Shown one piece after another: positions 14,448-32,558 of a stretch of 64,000 nucleotides of DNA. The stretch lies in the NCBI GenBank assembly GCA_000004985.1, contig GG738878.1; one strand, given 5' to 3'. The number at the start of each line of letters is the position of its first letter. Within the stretch, counting starts at the first letter, position 1. This DNA comes from Naegleria gruberi (taxonomy: Eukaryota). The position numbers and the translations under genes are program-made. The notes under the pieces were generated by a model. That model saw only the letters and a program-made list of their open reading frames with translations, was not told the origin of the DNA and made no database searches.

Positions 14448-16097
14448 TTATTTAAGAAGCTTTTGAGTTTCGAAAAAGTTACCATGGAAACCAAAAGGTA
14501 CTCTTCTTGGTAGCTCAATATTCACTAATGGTGTGTTATTCATTGTCTTTCCATCGAATACAAACACTGTGGAAGAATTGGAATGTTCATGGTAGGCATA
14601 ACATACAATGTAGACATCATCCTCTTCTTCAGATCTTGGTATGATTGAAACTTCTCCAATCATTCCATTGTTTGGAATGGTAATTGTTTGGAATGCATTT
14701 CCTTTTTCCAAATCAACTTTGGCAATTGAATTGGCAACGAATAGTTCTGATTTTTCAACTACTAAACTGTAGTAGAAAAATCTATTCTTTTGACCAGTGA
14801 TTTCTCCTCTTACGACAGGGAACTCTCCAGAGGGTAATTGATTTCCGTCGAGGGTTTTTAAGAAACCTTCTGAAATTAACTTGCCACTTGTTAAGTTCAG
14901 AGTGTATTCATATGGGAATGGTTGCCCTTTTGAAAAATCAGTCATTGAGAATGATTTTTGAACGTGAACCAATATCTTAATCAATAAATCATCACCCTCT
15001 CTTTCTTCATAAGCATTAATATAGTGAAAGGCAACACCAGTTTCAGCTTCAAAGAATTGTATCTTGCTCGACTTGCCATCGTACAATCTTGGGAAGACAG
15101 CAATCTTGGTTGGTTTGGTATCATCGAATACGATTGGATTTTCACCAGTTAGAACCTTCTTGACATCCAAAATCAATGGATAAAATCCAACAATTGAATA
15201 ATTTTCAGTAATGACCATATCATGAATCATGCAAACGTATGGAGTTTCTTCCTTGGTGAACTCATGTGAATGAATAATATCAAGATTCTTATCAGTGACA
15301 CCATATCTGAAAGAGGTTCCTCTAGGATTCAATTCATATCCAAAGAAAATCATCTCTCCATTTCTTGGATCAATTTTTGGATGAGCAGTGAAATTATGTT
15401 TCAATTTTCCTTTAAAATCAAACTCTCCAACTGTTTTCAAATCTGGGAATGTAACTTCCATTGGTTTGTGTCCTTCTTCGAGTGCCAGGAATTTACCACC
15501 ATGATAAATGATATTAGTATTTGCAGCACCACCTCCCTTCTTAAGTGGTCCATTCAATCCTCTATACATTCTCTCGTACAAGTAATGATAGGTATATTTG
15601 AGAAGTGGATTAATGCCACCATCCATGATCATACTATGAGCGAGAGGTCTTCCATTCTCCTTCTCTTGCAAGTACTTTTCAGTTTGGACGAATCTATTTC
15701 GATACGAACAATTTCCATCCTTGAATTCAAGTGCATGAATATGACCATCACCTTCAAACCAATGCAAATTATAGAGTGGATTAAATTGTGGATTTGGTCC
15801 AATTCTTGCATAAATTCCATTCAAATCCTTTGGAATTTCACCACTAATAATCGGAAGCTTTGTGATGGTCAATTCATCATGAATCGGAGCAAAATTACCA
15901 TTCATTATTGGATTGTTTTTAATACCGCTCTCATAGGCTTGATTCTTATAATTGGAGAAGAGGAAATACTTGAAAACTCCCTTGATCCACAATAGGACGC
16001 CATTTAAAACTGTCCAGCAGAGGATTAACAAGTATCGTAGTTGATCAATTAGAGAATTTTTGGCGGGAGAAGTTGGTTGATCATTGGATGAAGCCAT
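14448..16097 (-). CDS. Carotenoid cleavage oxygenase, RPE65/CCD family, with an N-terminal transmembrane segment.
   Basis: Intronless ORF of 549 aa. Family motifs present: FDGDGHIHALEF, IIYHGGKFLALEE, FTAHPKIDP and MIHDMVITENY. Confidence 0.75.
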   Translation of the reverse strand: MASSNDQPTSPAKNSLIDQLRYLLILCWTVLNGVLLWIKGVFKYFLFSNYKNQAYESGIKNNPIMNGNFAPIHDELTITKLPIISGEIPKDLNGIYARIGPNPQFNPLYNLHWFEGDGHIHALEFKDGNCSYRNRFVQTEKYLQEKENGRPLAHSMIMDGGINPLLKYTYHYLYERMYRGLNGPLKKGGGAANTNIIYHGGKFLALEEGHKPMEVTFPDLKTVGEFDFKGKLKHNFTAHPKIDPRNGEMIFFGYELNPRGTSFRYGVTDKNLDIIHSHEFTKEETPYVCMIHDMVITENYSIVGFYPLILDVKKVLTGENPIVFDDTKPTKIAVFPRLYDGKSSKIQFFEAETGVAFHYINAYEEREGDDLLIKILVHVQKSFSMTDFSKGQPFPYEYTLNLTSGKLISEGFLKTLDGNQLPSGEFPVVRGEITGQKNRFFYYSLVVEKSELFVANSIAKVDLEKGNAFQTITIPNNGMIGEVSIIPRSEEEDDVYIVCYAYHEHSNSSTVFVFDGKTMNNTPLVNIELPRRVPFGFHGNFFETQKLLK

Positions 16098-17382: not shown

Positions 17383-19544
17383 ATGCCCTTCGCATGGCTC
17401 AAACGAGGTAGCGGCCAAGAGGAAATAGATTTGGAAGATGTTCCTCTGAATCAGTGGTCTTCCAAACAGTTGACCAAATTTCTCAAGCAACACAAAAAGA
17501 AGATTGAATTGGAAAATAAGGATATTACCAGTATGTTTCAACAATAGCGAAATATCTAAATAGTAACAATTTTTTATTCACCATAATATTATAATGTCAT
17601 CATGATGATGAATTTTTATTATTATGTTCCGTGATGACGACAATGATGATGCTAACCACACCACGAACAACAATAACAAAAAAACGCGCCAATTCTATAT
17701 CTACTACTAACTACGATAATGATGATGATCAAACTCTAATTATTGCAAATTAACCGATTAATAATAATAACAATAACAAATATGATAATAATAACAATAC
17801 TATATGATAATAACAAAATAACAAAAAAGAATTGAGAGAAGAAAGATGGAATGGTTTATCCATGTTAAGTGCCAAAGTTGAAGATTTGGAAAAGTTGGGT
17901 CTTGCAAGTGGATCCGCGCATGCACTCTATACAACAATTCATGAAGTTATCAATAGTCAAGTACAACGAAATCTTCTCAACTTGAGTAATAATAGAATTT
18001 CCGTTAATATCAATACAGCATCATCGGATATATCAACAAGTGATTCTAATATTGGTTCATCATCATCAGCTGGTCATTCTCTAACGATAATTTCAAATGG
18101 AGGAGGTAGTGGAGAGGGAAAACATAGTTCTCTAGAATTTTCAAGTTCATCACCTGGAACATCAGTCAACCAACACCAACTCAATTATATTCAAACTATT
18201 ATTCAAAAACAACAGGGTAAATTGTCTGTACCAAACTTGAAAGATGAACAAATTGAAACATCTGGTGCAGTCACAACAAAAACTGGAGCAGATTTGGCTG
18301 CTATTCCTGCAGAAGATGATATTCGATTGGCACACGATTTGAATAATCCAGGAGAACTTGTTGAAGTTTCTCATGGTAGAAAGTCAGCAGGTGGTGGATT
18401 ACAAATTCTCACCCTTGCTTCATCTTCTACAAGTAATGCCAGTTCTCTTGAATCTGCTGTGAAGGATTGCCCTGCTTGGAAAGTTGATCAACTAACAGCT
18501 CAGCAAACTCAAGCTTTTGAAAATGCTGTTGAAAAGGTACAGAGCTTGAAGTATCCAATCAAACCTGAACTTATTGATGTTTTAGCTCAAGACTTGGTTA
18601 TTGTTGATAGATTCAAGTATAAATTCTTGAACCCAGACCGTTTAAAGCAAAGAGGAGATGGTGGTAGACATGATACTTTCCTCAAGATTAAACTTGTCAT
18701 TACCGAAATGGATACAGAAGTTTTCCACAGAATTTGCAGACGTTTTGCTAATACCTTCTCTACAACTGTTAGAAATAGTAGATGGGGTATGTTCCACACT
18801 GCCTTGATCATTGGTCCATGGTATTTGGAATGGAATGACAGTTCTCTTTCAACTGTTAGAAAGAAGAGTAGTAGTAAGGCAGTTTTTGCTGTTGATATTG
18901 CTAAAATTGAAGGACAAAGAGAAGTTAACGAAGTTATTGATTCTGTTGCTCAATTATGTACAGTATGGAACGGATACAAGCTTTATGAAAATGACTCATG
19001 TAACTGTCAACATTTTGTTATTGACATGTTAGAATATTTGGGATTGGGTGATTCTTTTGAAAATGTTTTGGAAAGATTCCCACCACTCAAGGAATACATT
19101 AACAAACTTAAGAAACGAGGTGTTTGCGATATGGCTTACTATGTAGATGATAGAATTGCTAAAGCCATCAAGGAATCTACACAAACAAGTAGAGCTTTGA
19201 AAGAACTTGTCAAGAATAAGAAGGTTACCTTTGCATCTCACAAACTTTTGGATGAATTTGTGAGTTTTATCATGCAAAACTTCCCACTCTTCATAACGAA
19301 TCGTCAACAAGAGTATGAACTTTTGAAAGCCTTTGATCGTGCTTTTTGGTTGAGAAGTCAATCTTCACAAACTGAAGATGATGAAACTGTGCAACCTATG
19401 GTTGATATGCACACTCAAGAATGCAAATGTCCTTTCAATAAGAATAATCAACCAATAACTGAAGTTAACAATTCTATTGTTGGTATTGACTATGATGTTG
19501 GTAATTATACAACTCATTTCCCTAAGCCTAGTGTTAACGCTTAA
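17383..19544 (+). CDS. Protein with an N-terminal SAM-like segment and a C-terminal papain-fold, PPPDE/DeSI-like putative peptidase region. Exons are join(17383..17530,17830..19544).
   Basis: Exon 1 encodes MPFAWLKRGSGQEEIDLEDVPLNQWSSKQLTKFLKQHKKKIELENKDIT and ends at a GTATGT donor. The 299-nt AT-rich intron ends acaaaaaag. Exon 2 continues in frame as K-LREERWNGL.... The motif DSCNCQHFVIDML resembles the PPPDE catalytic Cys region. The first in-frame ATG inside the 17832 ORF is well downstream. Confidence 0.5.
17531..17829 (+). other. Spliceosomal intron of 299 nt, GTATGT...aaaaaag, containing ATG/AAT microsatellite-like runs.
   Basis: Removing it joins a 49-codon first exon in frame to the 570-aa ORF. 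It has the same A-rich acceptor context as the intron at 959..1011. Confidence 0.5.
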
Positions 19545-19608: not shown

Positions 19609-21114
19609 TTAATAGAAACAATCATATACATCTGAAAGGGCATTAACTTTAACATCTTTCCAATGTTGAACAAAATCCTCGATACACATGTAAAAGATAC
19701 CATCATCTCTGAATTCAACATTCAAACGCTTAATGAGGTATGGTGTCCAATCCGAAGAATTGTCTGAATATCTTCCCTTCCACTCTAACGATGCCATAGA
19801 GCTTTGAATTTGTTGTTTTGTCATGTCGCTGCCAGCAAATCCCCTATTGAATTGTAAATAAAGTTATCAAAATTAAGATGAACAAACTTACCAAGGATTC
19901 ATAATTTTAACAAGACGGTGAACCTTTTGCTCATCCTCAACCTTTACAACCTCCAGTACAGCATATGCATGGTATTCCTTGATTCCACTTGTTTTCTCAG
20001 TTTCTGCATAGTTCTGAGGAGAGTAAACAAAGATTGTGTTGCCTGCCTTGTTGAAGTCGACCAGTTTTTTCCAAATTTCTAACGGGTTACTTGTTGGTGT
20101 AACAACTAGGCCTGGTAAAGGTCTAGCTCCACAAAGAGTTGCTGTTGCAAAATCCGATTGACCTCCATGCCCAATAGCTTTGTATCCTCCATATAATTTG
20201 GCAAATGCTTTCTCCAAAAGTGGAACCCAAAATTCATTAACTGTTGATGACCTAGAACATAATAACTTTCCATTTCCTCCAAATGGGAGTCTATCGTCGA
20301 TAGTAACCAGTGTTTCCTTTCCATCCTTATAGAGACGTAAAACATGTTTTCCCTTCTTCATATCACTCTCCACAAAAATATTCTTAATAATTCTTGGGCA
20401 TTTGTAGGCCAAATTAATGACAGCTGCCAAAAAGTAGCACGTTCCAATAGAAGACTGCCTAATATCAAGAACATCAATGCCATCGAAAAACAATTGAGGA
20501 TCGTCAGCAATTTCGCACGGACGTAACCATGCAGAAATCTTTTCACTGAAATCCCAATCTTGTTTGAATTCAGTGTCGAAAAACATTGTGCTTGTATTTG
20601 CTCTCTTTTGTCTTTCAACCATTTCCTTACTTGGATTGAAAATTCCATGCAATGCACAGTAATAATCCTTCAAGAGTTTTAAATATTGGTACAATTTTCC
20701 ATATTTCTGGAAGCAATCAATAAGGGTTTTAACTGGAGTTTCATAACTTGGCGTCACTGGCAAATTTTTGCATTCCTGAATCAGTTGATCAACAGTCAAA
20801 TTCAAAAAGTCTGGTACATTTGGTGTATTCACCCATTCGGATCTGACTTTTAATTCCTTATCTAAAATATCGCAGTGACTTGGATACCAACCACTTAATC
20901 CACTCTGAAAATCCGAATCTGTCTTCTTTACATAATTCATATAAAAATCAACATGTGGTGGTTTTGCCAAACCAATACCATTATCCAAAGCCTTTTCCCA
21001 CTTTACTATTGTATCTAATGTTTTTGTAAATTGAGGAGAGACTCCATCTAATTTCCCATACTTTTCCTTAAACTCTTGTAGTGTTTTCTTAATACTATAT
21101 TCCGAGACAGACAT
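19609..21114 (-). CDS. Calpain-like cysteine protease, paralog 1, with an intact Cys-His-Asn triad. Exons are complement(join(19609..19843,19892..21114)).
   Basis: Catalytic motifs present: QSSIGTCYFLAAV (Cys), EYHAYAVLEV (His) and KIMNPWG (Asn). A 48-nt intron at 19844..19891 (GTAAGT...CAATAG) joins to the calpain domain end ...RDDGIFYMCIEDFVQHW. Confidence 0.8.
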
Positions 21115-21500: not shown

Positions 21501-23177
21501 ATGATGATGATTTTTCCATTCCATTCGATTGATTATCATCATGCAACAACAATAACAATGAATGAAATTCCACTTTCTTCATCATCCATGTCTCATCATC
21601 AATATATGCCTCCACCTCCTGTATTATCATCTACTACTCCATCGTCACCATCTGGAGTAGCAGCAACACATCATCATCCTACTAGTACATTATCTTCCTT
21701 GTTTAGAAAGTATACTTCATCACCCAGTAGTAGTCGACAAAAGCAACATTCGGATATGAATGATTTACAACAGGATTTGTTGGAAAATGATTTTCAGGAA
21801 GAGTTGCAGACGAGAAATAAGAGTATTGATGGGTATAATGGGGTAGTGGACGATGATGCATACTATACGAAAGAAAATAAGGTGAAATTTTACATTCCTG
21901 AGAAGAAGTTTAATTTCTATCCGAATGTGGTGTTTAATTTGAGTAATTCGACTATTGGAGCTGGAATATTGACACTGCCATATGCTTTTAAAAGTTGTGG
22001 ACTAATTATGGGAATTGTCATTTTGGTTTTGGTTGGATTGATTGCTGTCCTTTCACTTCATTATTTATTGAATGCATCAGAGATTACAAAAGGGAGAACA
22101 TATAGAGAGGTAGCTATCAAAGCATTTAGAGGGAAAAAATTCATTGGTGTGATAATTGACATTGTGACGATCGTGTTTTGTTTTGGAGTCATGGTTGGAT
22201 ATGCAAATATTGTTGGAGATTATATGAAAACTATTTATGTTGGAATGTTAGAATCGGATTTGTTTGGAGGAAGTGAAGGAGCTTCAAAGGGACATATTAT
22301 GGCTACCAGAAGTTTCAATAGTTTTATTGCAATGGTTTTGGTAATGCTTCCTTTGAGTTTACTTCGAAAGATTAGTTTCCTTTCGTTTACTTCGTATATT
22401 TCAATGATTTGCATGTTCTTTACAATGGTTGTTTTGTTTATTAGATTCTGCCAAAAGGCACCAACTCTTCCAAAAAGATATGGCTACGATCTGACTCTAG
22501 TTCAAGAAAGTGGAAAATTCATGGAAGTTTTCTTAGCATTTCCAGTTTTATTCTTTGCATTTGGTTCACATTTTACCTTACTTCCACTCTATTATGAAAT
22601 TAAGGCCAAAATACGATCAAGAAGAAATATGGCTTGGGCCATCAACAATTCATCCATCATTTGTATGATTTGCTACTTGTTTGTTGGTATATTTGGTTAT
22701 GTACAGTTTGGAGACAAGTCAGTTAAGGAAAATATTCTCAACTCTTTCAAAGCCAATGACTTGTTGGTACTCGTTTGTAAAATATGTATGATATTTGTGG
22801 TTGGGTTGTCCTATCCACTCATTAACTTTGTTGCTAGAGTTCATGTTGAATCTTTATTATTTTCCAAGAGAAAATTCTCCTATTTCAGATGGGTTTTTGA
22901 AACATGCATAATTTCAGCATTGGTTTTATTGGTAATTTTGATTCCTTTGGATATTGTTACAATTTTTGGATTGACTGGAGCCAGTTTTGGAATGATTTTA
23001 ATGTTTATATTACCTTGTGTGTTTTATGGAATGGTAGAAACTCACAAAGTGAAAAGAGGATTTGCATTCTTTGTTGCATTTATTTGTTGCCTTCTTGGAT
23101 TAATATCGACAGGAAGTGTCATTTTGGACTTTGTGAGAAAAATTATGAATAATCAAATAACACTGCAAGATTTCTAA
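21501..23177 (+). CDS. Amino-acid transporter, Aa_trans/SLC38-AVT family, 11 transmembrane segments.
   Basis: Intronless 558-aa ORF from ATG 21501. The N/S-rich N-terminus is followed by the family start NVVFNLSNSTIGAGILTLPYAF. Confidence 0.7.
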   Translation: MMMIFPFHSIDYHHATTITMNEIPLSSSSMSHHQYMPPPPVLSSTTPSSPSGVAATHHHPTSTLSSLFRKYTSSPSSSRQKQHSDMNDLQQDLLENDFQEELQTRNKSIDGYNGVVDDDAYYTKENKVKFYIPEKKFNFYPNVVFNLSNSTIGAGILTLPYAFKSCGLIMGIVILVLVGLIAVLSLHYLLNASEITKGRTYREVAIKAFRGKKFIGVIIDIVTIVFCFGVMVGYANIVGDYMKTIYVGMLESDLFGGSEGASKGHIMATRSFNSFIAMVLVMLPLSLLRKISFLSFTSYISMICMFFTMVVLFIRFCQKAPTLPKRYGYDLTLVQESGKFMEVFLAFPVLFFAFGSHFTLLPLYYEIKAKIRSRRNMAWAINNSSIICMICYLFVGIFGYVQFGDKSVKENILNSFKANDLLVLVCKICMIFVVGLSYPLINFVARVHVESLLFSKRKFSYFRWVFETCIISALVLLVILIPLDIVTIFGLTGASFGMILMFILPCVFYGMVETHKVKRGFAFFVAFICCLLGLISTGSVILDFVRKIMNNQITLQDF

Positions 23178-25321: not shown

Positions 25322-26296
25322 TTATTTGCTTGCAGAATTCTGTGCAACAGATTTGAATGAATCGAGCTCAAGTAATTCTGGATATTCATACTCAATTCTC
25401 AAATCTCTGTAATTGGCTGAGTAGTCTGTTTGTGAAAGGAAGCCGTGTAAGGAGAGTGCTTGCAATTTCAAATGTTCATCAAAACGATAGGATAATGGAG
25501 TACCTTCTAGAGCTTGTCCATTTTGTTTGATACATTCAAAAATAAAATTCCAATCACTTGTAATGTCGTTGTCAGCATAGCTGAGAATATTTCCTTGATT
25601 CTTGACACATTTCAATACAAATTCTCGATCCTTCTTGAGCTCATCTGATGCAAACAAGAAAGCTCTTTCATCATTTAGAGTAGCTCTATAGACAATCTCC
25701 TTATCATTTCGAAACTCCTCACAAACATGTTCCAATAGGGAGCCACATCTTCCAATTGATTTCAAAACAAAATCTCGATCACTTCCTAATTCAGGAACAT
25801 AACCCATTGCAAATCCAATGACATATTCGACATGGTTTCCTCCTTGATCAACAGCTTTCAGTAACAATTCCCTTGTTCTGACTCTTGGTGGAGTCAACTT
25901 GATAACATAACCATTCACCTTTAAACATTTCAACACAAATTCAGCATTCATTTTCAAATCTAAAGAAGCAAATTCAAATCCCTTTCCATCAGGCGTTTTG
26001 CTAATTAATTCCAAGATGAATTCCTGATCTTCTTTCAAATCAGATGAAATACGATGCATTATCCATGGCGAATCAAGGACTGCAATGGTTACAATTTCCC
26101 TGTTATTTCTCAATTCTAGAGAAGCAAATCTCAGTAATTCTCCTTTTTTGGAAACTGATTTTTTAACATAATCATAATCATTGGAAAATTCTATTGGTAT
26201 AAATTGTGTATTGATGATTTCCTTGTTGTAAATCCATCGGATTGTTGACTTGGAAATGGTTTCAAATTTTTTCTTTAAATATGTATTAGAAAACAT
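25322..26296 (-). CDS. DUF4116-repeat protein of 324 aa.
   Basis: It has repeated modules of the form FASxELKxDREFVLKCVKxNGxxL (ASLELRNNREIVTIAV, ASLDLKMNAEFVLKCLKVNG, ASDELKKDREFVLKCVKNQG). Confidence 0.6.
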   Translation of the reverse strand: MFSNTYLKKKFETISKSTIRWIYNKEIINTQFIPIEFSNDYDYVKKSVSKKGELLRFASLELRNNREIVTIAVLDSPWIMHRISSDLKEDQEFILELISKTPDGKGFEFASLDLKMNAEFVLKCLKVNGYVIKLTPPRVRTRELLLKAVDQGGNHVEYVIGFAMGYVPELGSDRDFVLKSIGRCGSLLEHVCEEFRNDKEIVYRATLNDERAFLFASDELKKDREFVLKCVKNQGNILSYADNDITSDWNFIFECIKQNGQALEGTPLSYRFDEHLKLQALSLHGFLSQTDYSANYRDLRIEYEYPELLELDSFKSVAQNSASK

Positions 26297-26471: not shown

Positions 26472-28177
26472 CTATTCTTCTTCCTCCTCATATGTTTCTT
26501 CTTCTTCAGCAACAACTTCTTCCTCATTCAAAGTTAATTGAGCCTTTCTATTTTCCCAAACAAGAGTAACTTCAACATCTGAGAATTCTTCATCTCTACA
26601 TTCAGATTTAACATAGAATGTGTAATCTCCTTTTGGAACTCTTCTTCTTGTACCAGTAAATACATAGAGACCATCGCATTTGATTTCCAATTCTTCACAA
26701 CTTAATTCAAGATAACTGTTGAATTTGTCCATATCATCGTGAATCATTCTCAATGCAATGAGAACGTCACAAGTTCTGTCGACTGAAAGTGTGAATTGTT
26801 GAGTGAGAATGCATTCACCTTCCTCATTTTCACAAGTTTCGTCCTTTTCATCATGTTTGAGAATTTGTCTATAGGTAGGGAAATAGGACGATTGGTGAAC
26901 GTTGTGCAAGAGTTTTGGACTGAATTGATATCCGAATGAATTCTCGTCCTTATAGAAACATTCAATATCCACAATGTGGCCAACTGTCATTCTGGAGAAA
27001 CAATTAATAACATCATCAAAATGCATCCAAAAGACACCGTCATCCTTTTCTGCCTTATTTCTCTTTCTTCTTGATTTTGCATCAGTTGCTGTATCCACAA
27101 CAGGCAAAAGAACTGTATCTTTACACAACTCCTCAATGAGTTTTGATTGTCTAGTTACTCTCAGATTGAGTTCTCTCTTAACTTTTGTTGTCATCTCCTT
27201 AGAAGTATCAGACCAAGCTCCTTTCCATTCAGTACAACCCCAAGGATTTCTCAATCTAACCAATTGATTTCCATTGTAATCACAGGCATCAATGAGCGCA
27301 TAGTAATGTCCATCAACAATACCACTCTCTGTGGTGTTGGTATCACCGAGTCCAGATTCATTTTCTGAAGCAAAACCAATTGCATTACCATTCTTTACTC
27401 CTTTAAGAATTGATTTCCAAATGTCTTCTTTACACAATCCACCAAAAGGTTCTTCTTCTACACCTTCTTCTTCTTCCTCAGCAGTTTCCTCTTCTTCCTC
27501 TTCAACATACTCGTATTCACCTTCTTCCTCTTCTTCGTATTCTTCAGTTTCTTCTTCTTCTTAGCTTCCTCTTCACAATCACATTCCTCTTGGGTACAGG
27601 AAACGTGATTCTTCAAATATTCGAATTGAGGAAGGCAACCTGTGAAAATTTGAATTCCCAAAGTACCATCTCCACCATCAGTTTTATAATAACTTCCAAA
27701 AATTTTGGCAATCGCCTTCTCAACAATGGTAGGCCACAACTCATTTGGATTCTTTGATCTAACACCCAACAAGGATCCATCAGAAGAGACTGGAACATAA
27801 TCATCAATAGTGACATATCTCCACTCGTTTCTCCAGAACAATCTCAATGTATATTGTCCCATCTCAACATTTGCCTTAACAAACAAGTGAGCAATAATGT
27901 GTGGATATCTGGCAACAGCTGCTAACGAACTCAAAATCCAACAATTTCCAAAGCTTCCCTGAGCGATATCATTCACATCAATGCCATCACAAATAATCTG
28001 TGGATCATCACAAAGTTCGGAGAGTCTCATAAATCCATTATAATTCATACCTTCAAGATCTTCGTAGCCAAAAGATGTTTCATCGGCTGGAAAATCCAAA
28101 TCAACATACGGCTCTTCAAGAGGAGCCAAGTCTTTTTGCATTGAATAAAATTCCTCCTTACTTTGATAGGTTGTCAT
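26472..28177 (-). pseudogene. Calpain-like cysteine protease, paralog 2. The reading frame is broken once inside a (GAA/AAG)n tract near 27540-27575. Either a homopolymer assembly error or a pseudogene.
   Basis: ORF 27458..28177 carries the Cys motif GSFGNCWILSSLAAV. ORF 26472..27437 carries the His motif DGHYYALIDA, the Asn motif RLRNPWG and a C2-like tail. Both frames are E/K-rich across the junction. A 1-nt indel in ...GAAGCTAAGAAGAAGAAGAAACTG... would fuse them. No GT-AG intron fits. Confidence 0.7.
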
Positions 28178-28331: not shown

Positions 28332-31300
28332 TTATTTTTCGTGGAGTTTAGAAGAAACCCAGAATAAGGAATCTTCATTTTCTGGCATATCTTCATTAAT
28401 CTTTTCCAAACACTTCTTTCTGATAAGTTGATAAGAGGCCTTCTCCTTTGATTCTGCCATATAGCTCAATACATCCTCATTCTGATCCATAAATTCTATG
28501 GCTTCCTCAAATCTCAAGCTGAGGAATAATTCTCTCAGAGCTTGATAACCAGAGCACATTTTGATAAGATCTGGATTTGCATGTTCCTTTCTAGAGAGCA
28601 CACTATAAATATTGATTGGAATGGCCTTTCCCTTAACACAAACCACATCAACCCATTTACACAAGAATTTCTTGTGAACCTTTGCATAGACATTCTCACT
28701 GATCATTATTGAGGAACCATACATGGAATTGAGAGATTCGAGACGGGATGTTGTGTTGACTGTATCACCCAGACAAGTATAATTCATTCGGTCAACAGAC
28801 CCAATATTACCTATGAAACATTCTCCTGTATGAAGTCCTATTCTTATTTTCATATTAAAATTGTCAAAGGTTCCAGCATTCTTGTTAACACATATTAATC
28901 TCAACTTTTCCTTCCACTTGTTATTGAATGGAACTAGGCCCTCCTGACAAGCAAAGGCACTTTCAACAGCAGCTAATTCATGATCTCTTATAGGAACAGG
29001 ATCATTCCAAAAGGCCATAATTGAATCCCCAATAAATTTATCTACAGTTCCTTGGGTTTTCATGATAATATCTGTCTGTTGAGTGAAAAAGTCACACATT
29101 AGCTCTACAAGTGTATCAGGCGACATTTTCTCAGTCATGTTTGTAAAACTTGCAATATCAGAAAAGTAGAGTGTGACAGTTTTCCATTGAACACCCAACA
29201 TGGCTGGTTGTTTTGACTTGACAATAGTGGCAACAATATCATATGGCACATACTTGGAGAAACTATTCAAGCCTTTGCTCATTTGATTGACTGAGGAAAT
29301 AATGGAACGCACCTCTGAGAATGTAACAGGTACCTTGTCATCGTAACCTGTTTCTATATTCATCTGAGCAAGGTTGTCTACTCGTTTCTTCAATGAATTC
29401 AATGGACTTGTAATCAGTGCACTGACACAAATAGATATCATAACGGAAACTAAAACCAATACACACGACACGGCAACTACTGTGTAGCTTGTTTCTTGAA
29501 ATAGTGAAATATAACTACGTCTTGATGTTGAGTGGATAAGTAGCCAGTCTAATCCATTTTCAGTAATTGGCTCCACAGATACAAAATGAGCCTCACCACT
29601 AGAATCAACCAGGTAAATATTATTCGGAATGTTTGTCACATTAAGAGTGCCATTGATGCCATAATCTGTAAAAAGTTTTGTTGCAATTGAGGAGATGACA
29701 GTGTCATTTGCATTCTGTGCGAGAAGTAATGTCTGAGAACCTGACGAGTAGACCTGTTTCTGCTCTATTCCTTTACTAGATCCTAAAAGAGCTCCATCTT
29801 GTCTGATAACAAAAACTCTGTGATGATCCTCCTTGGCATATTCAGAATATAATTTCGTAGATAATTCAGAAAGTGAAAATATTACTGTCAAAACTCCTGT
29901 AAATTTGTTGTTGATATAGTAAGGGATAGAACAACCAATAGCCCATTTACCTGTAATAGTAATCTGGAAAATACTTGACCATACTGCAGTGTTGGAAGCA
30001 TCTAATCCTTTGGCCATTCTCTGTTCATCTATTGCTTTTAACTCATTCACACTAGAAAGAAGAACACCAAATCTACTTGATGATAATGGCATATTTCCTT
30101 CATAATATTGAATTTTTCCATTAGTCATCCTCCAAAAGTGCAACTTGTTTGTATTGTTATTTACAATGTACCTTTCTACTAATGAACCAGTTGGTGAATA
30201 GCTAACGTCAACCCCAGAATAATTTCCGTATAAATCTACAGAAAACATTTGATAAAACATTTCAGATTGAGCCACAGTATCTCTGAATAATTTCCTTAAC
30301 ATAGATTGATATCTTTCATTGGTTAGTGTATCTGTCAAGGAGAGGTTGGGCTCCAATTGAGTGAGTACAACTCTTGCCAAGTTTAACACACTCGGAGCAT
30401 AGTTGACCACTGAGGTCATCCAATTAGTTTTCATAAGATCCACTAGCTCTGAATTTGAATCAAATGCAATAGTATTAACTACTTGATACTCAGTGGTTAA
30501 ATACCCTGCGAGCCAAACTGAAATTCCAGTCACTACCACAACAGAAAGAAATACAATGAAAAGTACTATTTTGATGCTACAAACATAGTCGAAGCATTTT
30601 CTCTTGAAAACTTCCTTTTCTTCTCCAATGGATTCACTAACAAATGGCTCGGAAACAGATCTATTGGTAGAAACAACACTATTTCTATGATTATTTACAG
30701 TTCTTATGGATCTGGGTTGATCCTCACTACCTCTGTGGGCCATGTTTCTGTTGATATGATTGACTGTACCAAAAGAAAGTTGTAATGATTGAGGTCTATT
30801 AACAGAATTCCCATTTCTTTTTTTGTTGACTTGACGATTTGGAACCTTCTTTAAAACCTGTACCATAGTTGATGCAGAAGGAAGATCATCAACGATAATT
30901 TCGTTCTCCTCTTTAAAAGAAACTTGAACATTGTTCGCAGTAAGAGGTTCTGACCCTATTTCTTCTCTTGGAGTTCCAGGAGAGACCGCCACAATTGGGG
31001 AATTGGTTAAATTTAGTGCCTCTGACTTTTGTACTGGTTGAGAAGAAGATCTTCTTCTATTAGGATCATATTTTGTGGGTGGAAATGCAAATGACATGTT
31101 TACATCTTCCTCTCCGTCATGTTCCTCCATAGACTTAATTTTCTTTCCCAATTGTTTCTGAATAGTAAGAGGATCTACAACCAAATTATTTCTTGATGGT
31201 GAGGGAATGAGTTTTGGAGCTCTTGGTTGATCTCCTTCTTGACTTTGGCTCTGCCAACTTCCTACAAGCTGTTTTCTTCTAGAAGAATTAGCTCTAAACC

Positions 31301-32558
31301 TGTCATCACCATCGTCTTGTAAGTCGTCGCTCAACTCTCCTTGTTTAAAGAGCTCTACTATTGATTTTGCAGAGCCCATCATACTGGATTTCCTTGAAAT
31401 TCCACTAGTGTTTGACAAGGAGTTTTCATTGCCAAGAGATTTTCCAAAATATGAATTAACTGGAAGAGAATGAGTAATTCTTTCGGATGTGTCTGGTGTT
31501 GCTAAATGTATTGGATTGGTAGAATTAAAAGAAGGAGTAAATGAAGTACCAGTTGAGTGAACATCTGTCATTAGAGAATTGGGAGTGCTACAAGAAGGAA
31601 TGTGTTCCTCTACTAAGGCATTCAAATTAATATTTGTAATGGCCTCATCAGGATTAATATTCTCTGCAAATGAAAATTCATTCTTGAAATTATCCATCTC
31701 CTCATGTACCTCTTGATGATCATCTTGAATGGTAGAGACAGTCAGTATACTATCGAATTGTTGTTTCTCTACCTCATCATGAATATTAGTTTCATTCGAA
31801 TGTTCATTCTCAAGACTCTTCAATTCCGATGATAGAGTGGTATTATTATTACTATTTTCTAAATTAATACTATTACTACTAGTAGTCTCCACAATCGAAA
31901 CATTTACATCTTGCTCATCACCATCACAAACATCTTCAAATCTAGTTTTCTTTTTTATCAAATCATTCAATTCAACCTTGACCGTCGGAGGAGTACTATG
32001 AAGAATACTTTTCAATTCACGATGACTCGATTCTTGTTGTTCTCGTTCTTGTCCTTGTCCTTCCACAACAGCTTTACCGAGTGTCCTACCTCGAACATTG
32101 TTTTGTTGTTGATTTAAACTTGGTGCTTTTGATTCATTTTTTGCTTCTCTTGCAAAAAGATTTCGCGCCAAAGAAACGGAAACTGTTGGCGGCTGATTAA
32201 GTTTTGCTGATAATTCATTTTCGAATAATTCTTGTTGTTGGTGTGCTGAAGGTGATTGTGGTGGTGATTGAGGCTGGGAAGAAATGATGGTGGGTTGATT
32301 TCCTCGGAAGCTTCCATTCTTGGGTGAGTTGTTTCTAGAGCTCGAATTACTACCACTTGAATTGTTGTTGGTCATTGAGGTTATTCTATTGAGTTGGAGT
32401 TGTTTCTTAGGTGATGTAGGCGGTATTGATGATGATTGGCCTGAGGAGTTTGTTGTTTGTTGATTGGAAATTATACTGGGAGAGCTAGTGTTATTGTTGT
32501 AGGATCGCCTACCATCACTAGGTGTTCGTGTATTTCGATTATTCTTCATCATTGGCAA
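28332..32558 (-). CDS. Sensor-type class III adenylate/guanylate cyclase, 1408 aa. It has about 640 aa of N-terminal low-complexity sequence, then TM1, an extracellular domain of about 300 aa, TM2, a HAMP-like linker and the cyclase domain.
   Basis: Intronless 4.2 kb ORF. The transmembrane helices are IVLFIVFLSVVVVTGISVWLAGY and VVAVSCVLVLVSVMISICVSALIT. The cyclase core contains FSDIASFT, FIGDSIMAFWN, IRIGLHTGECFIGNIGS and CLGDTVNTTSRLES. Confidence 0.8.
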   Translation of the reverse strand: MPMMKNNRNTRTPSDGRRSYNNNTSSPSIISNQQTTNSSGQSSSIPPTSPKKQLQLNRITSMTNNNSSGSNSSSRNNSPKNGSFRGNQPTIISSQPQSPPQSPSAHQQQELFENELSAKLNQPPTVSVSLARNLFAREAKNESKAPSLNQQQNNVRGRTLGKAVVEGQGQEREQQESSHRELKSILHSTPPTVKVELNDLIKKKTRFEDVCDGDEQDVNVSIVETTSSNSINLENSNNNTTLSSELKSLENEHSNETNIHDEVEKQQFDSILTVSTIQDDHQEVHEEMDNFKNEFSFAENINPDEAITNINLNALVEEHIPSCSTPNSLMTDVHSTGTSFTPSFNSTNPIHLATPDTSERITHSLPVNSYFGKSLGNENSLSNTSGISRKSSMMGSAKSIVELFKQGELSDDLQDDGDDRFRANSSRRKQLVGSWQSQSQEGDQPRAPKLIPSPSRNNLVVDPLTIQKQLGKKIKSMEEHDGEEDVNMSFAFPPTKYDPNRRRSSSQPVQKSEALNLTNSPIVAVSPGTPREEIGSEPLTANNVQVSFKEENEIIVDDLPSASTMVQVLKKVPNRQVNKKRNGNSVNRPQSLQLSFGTVNHINRNMAHRGSEDQPRSIRTVNNHRNSVVSTNRSVSEPFVSESIGEEKEVFKRKCFDYVCSIKIVLFIVFLSVVVVTGISVWLAGYLTTEYQVVNTIAFDSNSELVDLMKTNWMTSVVNYAPSVLNLARVVLTQLEPNLSLTDTLTNERYQSMLRKLFRDTVAQSEMFYQMFSVDLYGNYSGVDVSYSPTGSLVERYIVNNNTNKLHFWRMTNGKIQYYEGNMPLSSSRFGVLLSSVNELKAIDEQRMAKGLDASNTAVWSSIFQITITGKWAIGCSIPYYINNKFTGVLTVIFSLSELSTKLYSEYAKEDHHRVFVIRQDGALLGSSKGIEQKQVYSSGSQTLLLAQNANDTVISSIATKLFTDYGINGTLNVTNIPNNIYLVDSSGEAHFVSVEPITENGLDWLLIHSTSRRSYISLFQETSYTVVAVSCVLVLVSVMISICVSALITSPLNSLKKRVDNLAQMNIETGYDDKVPVTFSEVRSIISSVNQMSKGLNSFSKYVPYDIVATIVKSKQPAMLGVQWKTVTLYFSDIASFTNMTEKMSPDTLVELMCDFFTQQTDIIMKTQGTVDKFIGDSIMAFWNDPVPIRDHELAAVESAFACQEGLVPFNNKWKEKLRLICVNKNAGTFDNFNMKIRIGLHTGECFIGNIGSVDRMNYTCLGDTVNTTSRLESLNSMYGSSIMISENVYAKVHKKFLCKWVDVVCVKGKAIPINIYSVLSRKEHANPDLIKMCSGYQALRELFLSLRFEEAIEFMDQNEDVLSYMAESKEKASYQLIRKKCLEKINEDMPENEDSLFWVSSKLHEK

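Follow-up and report, generated by a model that had tools for sequence, protein, structure and literature searches.

A probable receptor-type adenylate cyclase of bacterial ancestry with a diverged double-Cache sensor in Naegleria gruberi

Analysis of a window of Naegleria gruberi DNA (the whole stretch that was analysed, 64,000 nucleotides of contig GG738878.1) revealed a gene whose product is probably an adenylate cyclase of the receptor type and of bacterial ancestry. The protein would combine a dCache_1 ectodomain, a second transmembrane helix (TM2), a HAMP-like linker, a class IIIb catalytic domain and a TPR-like tail with a disordered N-terminus that was added in heteroloboseans. The gene product is NAEGRDRAFT_50331 (XP_002675464.1; UniProt D2VKN3), annotated in the database as "predicted protein" and nothing more, and no mention of the gene was found in the literature under any of its accessions. 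It is an ordinary, poorly annotated N. gruberi gene, and proteins of this kind are already known.

The open reading frame occupies positions 28332..32558 of the minus strand, to which all coordinates below refer, and, with a TTG taken as its first codon, comprises 1408 codons. It is directly preceded by an in-frame TGA, the first ATG is at 32552, and the complete single-exon coding sequence from this ATG to the stop codon covers 28332..32552. The GenBank model has the same single exon, but uses the second ATG (32549) as the start and is 1405 amino acids long. An intronless gene at 28332-32558 had been proposed in the first-pass annotation, which did not give the strand, and its extent proved to be exact. 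Chance could be ruled out as the origin of the reading frame because a run of 655 stop-free codons has a probability of about 3e-22 at the local base composition, the other two forward frames contain 14-50 stops per segment, and codon usage like that of the neighbouring genes is found in frame 0 alone, the N-terminal part included. The reading frame is thus confirmed as a real gene.

The gene is flanked by the TBCD gene and a calpain gene. The first-pass annotation had also regarded the lack of introns as unusual at a locus where most neighbours contain them. Two calpain genes, TBCD and a kinase gene are indeed split, but an RPE65-family gene and an amino-acid-transporter gene are each complete in a single reading frame. 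The contrast is not with the locus but with the orthologues, which have one or two introns, and the intronless state is limited to N. gruberi. The orthologue introns are spliceosomal GT-AG introns, and two orthologues have an intron in common within the codon for a catalytic Asp. As the nearest relatives outside the heteroloboseans are bacterial, bacterial contamination or an assembly artefact had to be considered as the source of the gene. However, its GC content and codon usage are like those of the neighbouring eukaryotic genes, it is placed between TBCD and a calpain gene, the gene order TBCD then cyclase is kept in three heteroloboseans (N. gruberi and two others), and the orthologues are interrupted by introns. 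These results refute an artefact, to which we assign a practically negligible probability.

The encoded protein contains two strong hydrophobic segments with K/R-rich flanks on the cytoplasmic side, which represent transmembrane helix 1 (TM1; aa 662-687, 30498..30575) and TM2 (aa 1023-1049, 29412..29492). From the N-terminus, the layout consists of a low-complexity region of about 655 aa, TM1, an ectodomain of 335 aa, TM2, the HAMP-like linker, the class III cyclase domain and a helical tail. The receptor-type topology recognised in the first-pass annotation, with two transmembrane segments and a class III cyclase domain, was thus recovered.

The N-terminus was likewise found to be rich in S, N, Q and T as described (S 15%, N 11%), and a Pfam scan of this region yielded no domain. 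Its first part (aa 3-336, 31551..32552) is S/N/Q/T-rich, specific to N. gruberi and without counterpart in the orthologues, whereas the second part (aa 337-655, 30594..31550) is a low-complexity cytoplasmic region that holds conserved short motifs. These are the acidic-basic motif QDDGDDRFRANSSRRKQL (aa 414-431, 31266..31319), the basic-basic-R-S motif NRRRSSSQP (aa 500-508, 31035..31061), IIVDDLPSAS (aa 554-563, 30870..30899), NRPQSLQLSFGTV (aa 587-599, 30762..30800) and HRNSVVS (aa 624-630, 30669..30689). The core DDLPSA is invariant in four aligned sequences and also present in the fragment P0173, and the basic-basic-R-S motif, a candidate basophilic-kinase site, recurs in N. lovaniensis (RKRSITDP) and in the same fragment (RKRSISQP). 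Apart from one fragment of 124 aa, a search with the conserved N-terminal region retrieved no further protein family. Judged from its sequence, the N-terminus is a coding, eukaryote-specific addition with short motifs kept among orthologues.

The ectodomain (aa 688-1022, 29493..30497) contains six N-x-S/T sequons. Scans with Pfam and NCBIfam, run on the complete protein as well as on the isolated ectodomain, yielded sensor families below threshold only. The Pfam dCache_1 model (PF02743) gave no match on the Naegleria proteins, for the N. gruberi protein even at E up to 10, and the sole related Pfam match was MCP-like_PDC_1 with 22.1 bits against a cut-off of 27. A novel sensor module, as suggested in the first-pass annotation, would be in line with the absence of any Pfam sensor family above threshold. 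However, an HMM built exclusively from heterolobosean sequences matched bacterial dCache_1 proteins with E values of 1e-14 to 1e-7 (best 1.7e-14), which are scaled to 1.84e9 sequences and thus significant at the scale of the whole library. Alignment with bacterial dCache_1 ectodomains using hhalign gave a probability of 99.7% over 277 columns (E 7.5e-26), and 58 of the 60 best non-heterolobosean matches carry the Pfam dCache_1 domain.

Structure prediction led to the same assignment. The AlphaFold model of the ectodomain reached a pLDDT of 86.7 and a pTM of 0.85, although the input alignment consisted mostly of bacterial dCache sequences, which favours this fold. In the predicted models, two PDC modules come after a long N-terminal helix, and the whole is situated between the two transmembrane helices; the distal module is the least confident part (pLDDT 59-79, ectodomain residues 100-150). 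All of the top 50 Foldseek matches in the PDB were dCache ligand-binding domains, e.g. those of PctD, Mlp24, TlpC and PctA. When the PDB sequences were searched with the heterolobosean-only profile, just a weak match to a histidine kinase (E 0.01) emerged; the stronger PDB matches obtained once a bacterial dCache protein was part of the profile were not counted as independent. A tblastn search with the ectodomain alone against 80 bacterial loci gave no match. Together, the HMM, Foldseek and hhalign results refute a novel sensor fold, which is extremely improbable, and by profile comparison and modelling the ectodomain is a very diverged double-PDC sensor of the dCache_1 family that falls below the Pfam threshold. 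This family is the commonest extracellular sensor family of prokaryotes, and a match to a well-known sensor family was what the first-pass annotation itself had named as refuting a novel module.

In PctA, the positions of the amino-acid-binding motif of the dCache_1AA subgroup are R-x-W-Y, Y and D. The consensus of this distal-module motif, which was defined by Gumerov et al. 2022 (PMC8915833), is YDPRxRPWY...PY...VD; the ectodomain instead reads MPLSSSRF...IF...VI. All amino-acid-binding positions are replaced, and an amino-acid sensor of the dCache_1AA type was therefore rejected. These replacements, together with an insertion of 19 residues that adjoins the distal pocket, could also mean that the dCache domain has lost ligand binding and serves as a dimerisation scaffold only, while activity is set via the disordered N-terminus, e.g. 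by phosphorylation; the conserved N-terminal motifs, including the basic-basic-R-S site, would fit such a role. We consider this unlikely. The distal-module residues VWSS, C-x-IP-x-Y and TG-x-L are invariant among orthologues that are only 31-40% identical, which suggests a constrained pocket, and ligands that are not amino acids are known for many dCache_1 domains (PMC8915833).

The succession of transmembrane helix, ectodomain, transmembrane helix and class III cyclase is also that of ACG from Dictyostelium, whose CHASE ectodomain serves as an intramolecular osmosensor, and a general proposal of osmotic control has been made for Naegleria cyclases (PMC9928731). The likeness to ACG noted in the first-pass annotation holds for this topology, but not for the family. 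The ectodomain, which had already been judged not to be CHASE, gave no match to the Pfam CHASE model even at E up to 10 and is homologous to dCache_1, and the nearest relatives of the protein are bacterial dCache cyclases rather than ACG. Membership in the ACG family is thus refuted, and an osmosensing cyclase of this type is very improbable.

A HAMP-like linker after TM2 had been proposed, and a candidate was located at aa 1046-1098 (29265..29423): the HAMP profile (PF00672) aligns over nearly its full length (positions 3-52 of 53), although the score of 12.8 bits (E 0.16) is below the cut-off of 25. HAMP matches 8 of 15 members of the family (best 1.8e-6), and the model shows a helix-loop-helix at this site with low confidence. 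The linker is followed by the short helix SFSKYVPYDIVATIV (29199..29264), which is common to the bacterial homologues and may be a cyclase-transducer-like element.

The catalytic domain (aa 1126-1312, 28623..29183) was identified by Pfam as Guanylate_cyc (PF00211) with 81.5 bits against a cut-off of 21.9 (E 7.5e-23). Its closest solved structures are those of the bacterial class IIIb adenylate cyclases CyaB (3r5g, E 8e-31) and CyaC (1wc0), with which the metal-binding residues D1134 and D1178 and the transition-state residues N1268 and R1272 align; the domain also contains K1309. In class III cyclases, Lys and Thr at the substrate positions are typical of adenylate cyclases and Glu and Cys of guanylate cyclases. 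Inspection of these positions, as suggested in the first-pass annotation, revealed K1174 within DKFIGD and T1261 within NYTCLG, and the set of six catalytic positions is intact. A guanylate cyclase could be considered because the Pfam family spans both enzyme types and weak matches to vertebrate receptor guanylate cyclases were obtained. However, with the Lys/Thr pair of CyaC and CyaB instead of Glu/Cys, and with adenylate cyclases as all of the best solved relatives, it is highly improbable. The catalytic residues predict a class IIIb adenylate cyclase, and cAMP is most likely the product. The protein ends with a helical tail (aa 1313-1408, 28335..28622), whose collinear counterpart in the bacterial homologues is a TPR-like tail.

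Over their whole length, the last 750 or so amino acids can be aligned with a bacterial family that is widespread and whose members have about 700 aa. The identity to the bacterial protein P0004 is 27% over the stretch between the distal sensor module and the C-terminal residue, both included, and the alignment with a gene from Polyangiaceae spans residues 7-741. The best ectodomain match and the best cyclase match come from the same bacteria, and the nearest relatives outside the heteroloboseans have the whole architecture in common with the Naegleria protein. The bacterial dCache cyclase family is present in many phyla, and no candidate donor stands out, all being about 26-36% identical. The gene was probably acquired by horizontal transfer from bacteria.

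For dimerisation, ligand control, the direction of regulation and the role of the N-terminus, we infer the following scheme. As in related proteins, the cyclase would form a homodimer, and a small extracellular ligand would bind to the double-Cache domain. The resulting displacement would travel through TM2 and on along the HAMP-like helices until it reached the short helix that precedes the catalytic domains, where it would alter the pairing of these domains and thereby how fast cAMP is made from ATP. A second, cytoplasmic input would probably come from the N-terminal region, e.g. through phosphorylation or partner binding at the conserved motifs. More tentatively, it is possible that an early heterolobosean took up a bacterial double-Cache receptor cyclase, which then gained introns and the motif-bearing disordered N-terminus as a second control input, e.g. 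for feedback phosphorylation at the basic-basic-R-S site, while the pocket was rebuilt for a new ligand that is not an amino acid. If so, this ligand could link prey or environmental cues to the differentiation of Naegleria.

These results provide D2VKN3 with a domain assignment and a predicted product, cAMP, and indicate that the Cache sensors of Naegleria are undercounted when Pfam thresholds are applied. The gene would also serve as a clean example of an entire bacterial receptor that has long been resident in a eukaryotic genome, where the order of genes was conserved, introns were gained and lost, and a regulatory tail was added. Otherwise, the knowledge of cyclases or Cache domains is unchanged.

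Among known systems, Upadhyay et al. 2016 (PMC4822843) report Naegleria Cache domains only in "bacterial-type adenylate cyclases" and list D2VLR9 and D2V3A4 from N. gruberi; D2VKN3 was not found in the part of the supplement covered. Both proteins have a similar architecture (dCache_1 and Guanylate_cyc), and D2VLR9 likewise has a long stretch, about 320 residues, before its Cache domain. D2VKN3 appears to be distant from both because, in a comparison by length, no protein as long as either was among the 150 best ectodomain matches. The first homologue search missed the protein of the window itself even though it was present in the collection, and N. gruberi paralogues may thus have been missed as well. 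Dictyostelium ACG (AcgA) likewise belongs to the class III adenylate cyclases and has transmembrane helices on both sides of its ectodomain, but it is defined by its CHASE domain (PMC4399386), whereas D2VKN3 has dCache_1 and no CHASE. P. aeruginosa CyaB and Spirulina CyaC have the same Lys/Thr pair, metal-binding and transition-state residues as D2VKN3, but carry different N-terminal sensor modules and no dCache ectodomain. Related dCache cyclases that have been described are Rv2435c of M. tuberculosis and a dCache_1AA cyclase of L. pneumophila. The same domain order is found in the bacterial dCache_1-HAMP-class IIIb cyclases, which are about 700 aa long and end in a TPR-like tail (P0004, P0026, and proteins of Polyangiaceae, Bryobacterales and Bradyrhizobium). 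They are collinear with D2VKN3 from the sensor to the C-terminal residue, match it in the catalytic residues and share the helical tail, yet the identity is only about 25-36%. Unlike theirs, the sensor of D2VKN3 does not reach the Pfam threshold, has no amino-acid motif and contains the 19-residue insertion. On the Naegleria side, the orthologues contain introns, and the added cytoplasmic N-terminus amounts to 300-655 aa, compared with only about 20-140 residues ahead of TM1 in the bacterial homologues, in agreement with the earlier view that so long an N-terminus is atypical for this enzyme class.

The cyclase gene noted at 28332..32558, which lies on the minus strand, is real, because its open reading frame, its topology, and its identity with a database protein all check out. 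The frame spans 1408 codons counted from a TTG, with the first ATG at 32552 and an in-frame TGA immediately upstream. The encoded protein and N. gruberi XP_002675464.1 (NAEGRDRAFT_50331, D2VKN3) are identical; the latter is a "predicted protein" of 1405 aa in its database model, which starts at the second ATG. Hydrophobic helices were located at aa 662-687 (TM1) and aa 1023-1049 (TM2), with basic residues flanking TM1 on its N-terminal side and TM2 on its C-terminal side. They enclose an ectodomain of 335 residues with six N-x-S/T sequons and precede the cyclase domain, so that the two-TM receptor topology of the first-pass annotation was confirmed. The long N-terminus is also coding. Its 655 codons are stop-free (chance about 3e-22 given the local base composition), each segment of the other two forward frames contains 14-50 stops, and neighbour-like codon usage was found in frame 0 only, N-terminal part included.

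The ectodomain had been regarded as not obviously CHASE and as a possible novel sensor module. The first view was correct: Pfam yielded no match to CHASE, dCache, PBP or another sensor family in this region, and MCP-like_PDC_1 alone appeared, below threshold. Despite the missing Pfam match, the ectodomain is homologous to dCache_1, and novelty was refuted by profile searches, hhalign, and structure comparison alike. The nearest protein outside the heteroloboseans is a bacterial dCache_1 cyclase (P0004), which aligns at 27% identity from the distal sensor module through to the C-terminal residue. An ectodomain profile retrieved 2157 proteins at E <=0.001 among 1.84 billion, and Pfam dCache_1 is present in 58 of the 60 best matches beyond the orthologue group. 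Because this first profile included one bacterial sequence, the search was repeated with a heterolobosean-only profile, which matched bacterial dCache_1 proteins at E values of 1.7e-14 to 1e-7 on the whole-library scale. Aligned by hhalign with a purely bacterial profile, it gave a probability of 99.7% and an E value of 7.5e-26 over 277 columns. The AlphaFold model was confident (pLDDT 86.7, pTM 0.85) and showed one long helix plus two alpha/beta modules. The best 50 Foldseek matches in the PDB were all dCache ligand-binding domains, including PctD, MkcA, Mlp24, TlpC, PctA-C, and TlpQ, a fold match to be read with the caveat that the input alignment consisted mostly of bacterial dCache sequences.

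Sensors of the dCache_1AA type bind amino acids through a defined motif (PMC8915833). In the alignment to the bacterial consensus this motif is absent from the Naegleria ectodomain: YDPRxRPWY, PY, and VD are replaced by MPLSSSRF, IF, and VI, with an insertion of 19 residues after them. The distal-module residues VWSS and C-x-IP-x-Y are invariant among orthologues at 31-40% identity, which suggests that a putative distal pocket is still under constraint.

The stretch after TM2 is a HAMP-like linker, not a proven HAMP domain, since it aligns with the whole HAMP profile but at only 12.8 bits; HAMP was matched in 8 of 15 family members (best 1.8e-6). The Pfam cyclase domain covers aa 1126-1312 (E 7.5e-23), and its nearest solved relatives are the bacterial class IIIb adenylate cyclases CyaB (3r5g, E 8e-31) and CyaC (1wc0). 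The residues for metal (D1134, D1178), substrate (K1174, T1261), and transition state (N1268, R1272) are present. Under the established rule for class III cyclases, ATP is the predicted substrate of D2VKN3. The last 96 residues are helical and collinear with the TPR-like tail of bacterial homologues.

In bacteria the full layout, about 700 aa long, is widespread (Bryobacterales, Myxococcota, Planctomycetota, Desulfobacterota, Bradyrhizobium, others, and even Dependentiae), and the C-terminal 750 residues of the Naegleria protein align to positions 7-741 of a Polyangiaceae gene. Because the best sensor match and the best cyclase match fall in the same bacteria, the receptor was inherited as a unit and not built by domain shuffling. 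No bacterial donor stands out, since identities are flat at 26-36%.

Compared with the bacterial proteins, the N-terminus is an added part. N. gruberi has about 655 aa of it, a heterolobosean relative from a metagenome about 300 aa, and N. lovaniensis about 447 aa as annotated. The N. lovaniensis frame extends 73 codons (L082 7782-8001) beyond the annotated start (MKMSSPRSSS...), giving about 520 aa, so part of the 5' end may be missing from the public model. Pfam found no domain in the first 655 residues, and the first 335 or so have no counterpart elsewhere. The conserved blocks DDxDDRF[KR]ANSxRRK, P-x-[VI]-[AS]-VSP, DDLPSA, RPxSLxLxF, and HR[ND]S follow; a 124-aa fragment of another relative shares several of them and a basic-basic-R-S site (variants RRRSSS, RKRSIT, RKRSIS). 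When the conserved region was searched as a profile, no further protein family was retrieved. The N-terminus may plausibly serve in regulation or targeting.

The gene is a single exon, as first annotated, but this is not odd in its locus, because the neighbours are mixed: two calpains, TBCD (tubulin cofactor D), and a kinase are split, and an RPE65-family gene (14448..16097) and an amino-acid transporter gene (21501..23177) are complete in one ORF with the whole Pfam profile. The two calpain-family genes lie inside 8 kb (19888-21114 and 26472-28177); the second, which flanks the cyclase opposite TBCD, is split by a short intron between Pfam profile positions 171 and 175. An ORF with eight DUF4116 repeats (E 1.2e-77) occupies 25322-26296, and a plus-strand ORF of 570 aa at 17832-19544 has no Pfam match at E <=1e-4.

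The gene immediately upstream of the cyclase, in the same orientation, is TBCD in N. gruberi (32777-35554, with the cyclase at 28332-32558), N. lovaniensis (pair at L082 2999-11745), and a contig of an uncultured heterolobosean from a metagenome (pair at L081 474-6834). In the window, the TBCD ORF starts only from the second ARM block; the missing 5' exons probably lie in 35555-38057, which holds no ORF of at least 150 aa. An RPE65-family gene is also close to TBCD in both Naegleria species. On the metagenome contig the cyclase gene is next to the mitofilin gene; in N. lovaniensis, a retroelement ORF of 1201 aa (reverse transcriptase, RNase H, endonuclease; L082 12695-16300) separates them. 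In N. lovaniensis the cyclase gene has a first intron of about 83 nt after KFIG (GTATGT...CAG, L082 10833-10915) and a second after ECFIG (about L082 11129-11257). The uncultured heterolobosean has a 35-nt GTATGT...AG intron (L081 6081-6115) at the same place and phase. This shared phase 1 intron splits the catalytic Asp codon (IG^D), and ATT GGG GAT is continuous in N. gruberi (29025-29033). As the site is common to N. lovaniensis and a more distant relative, the simpler explanation is that N. gruberi lost the intron. The conserved TBCD order and the acquired introns show that the cyclase gene is not recent in heteroloboseans.

Upadhyay et al. (2016; PMC4822843) placed the Naegleria Cache in a "bacterial-type adenylate cyclase" and traced eukaryotic Cache domains to horizontal transfer. 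The part of their supplement consulted includes two other N. gruberi Cache-bearing cyclases, D2VLR9 and D2V3A4, without D2VKN3. D2VKN3 belongs to a known class as a diverged and under-annotated member.
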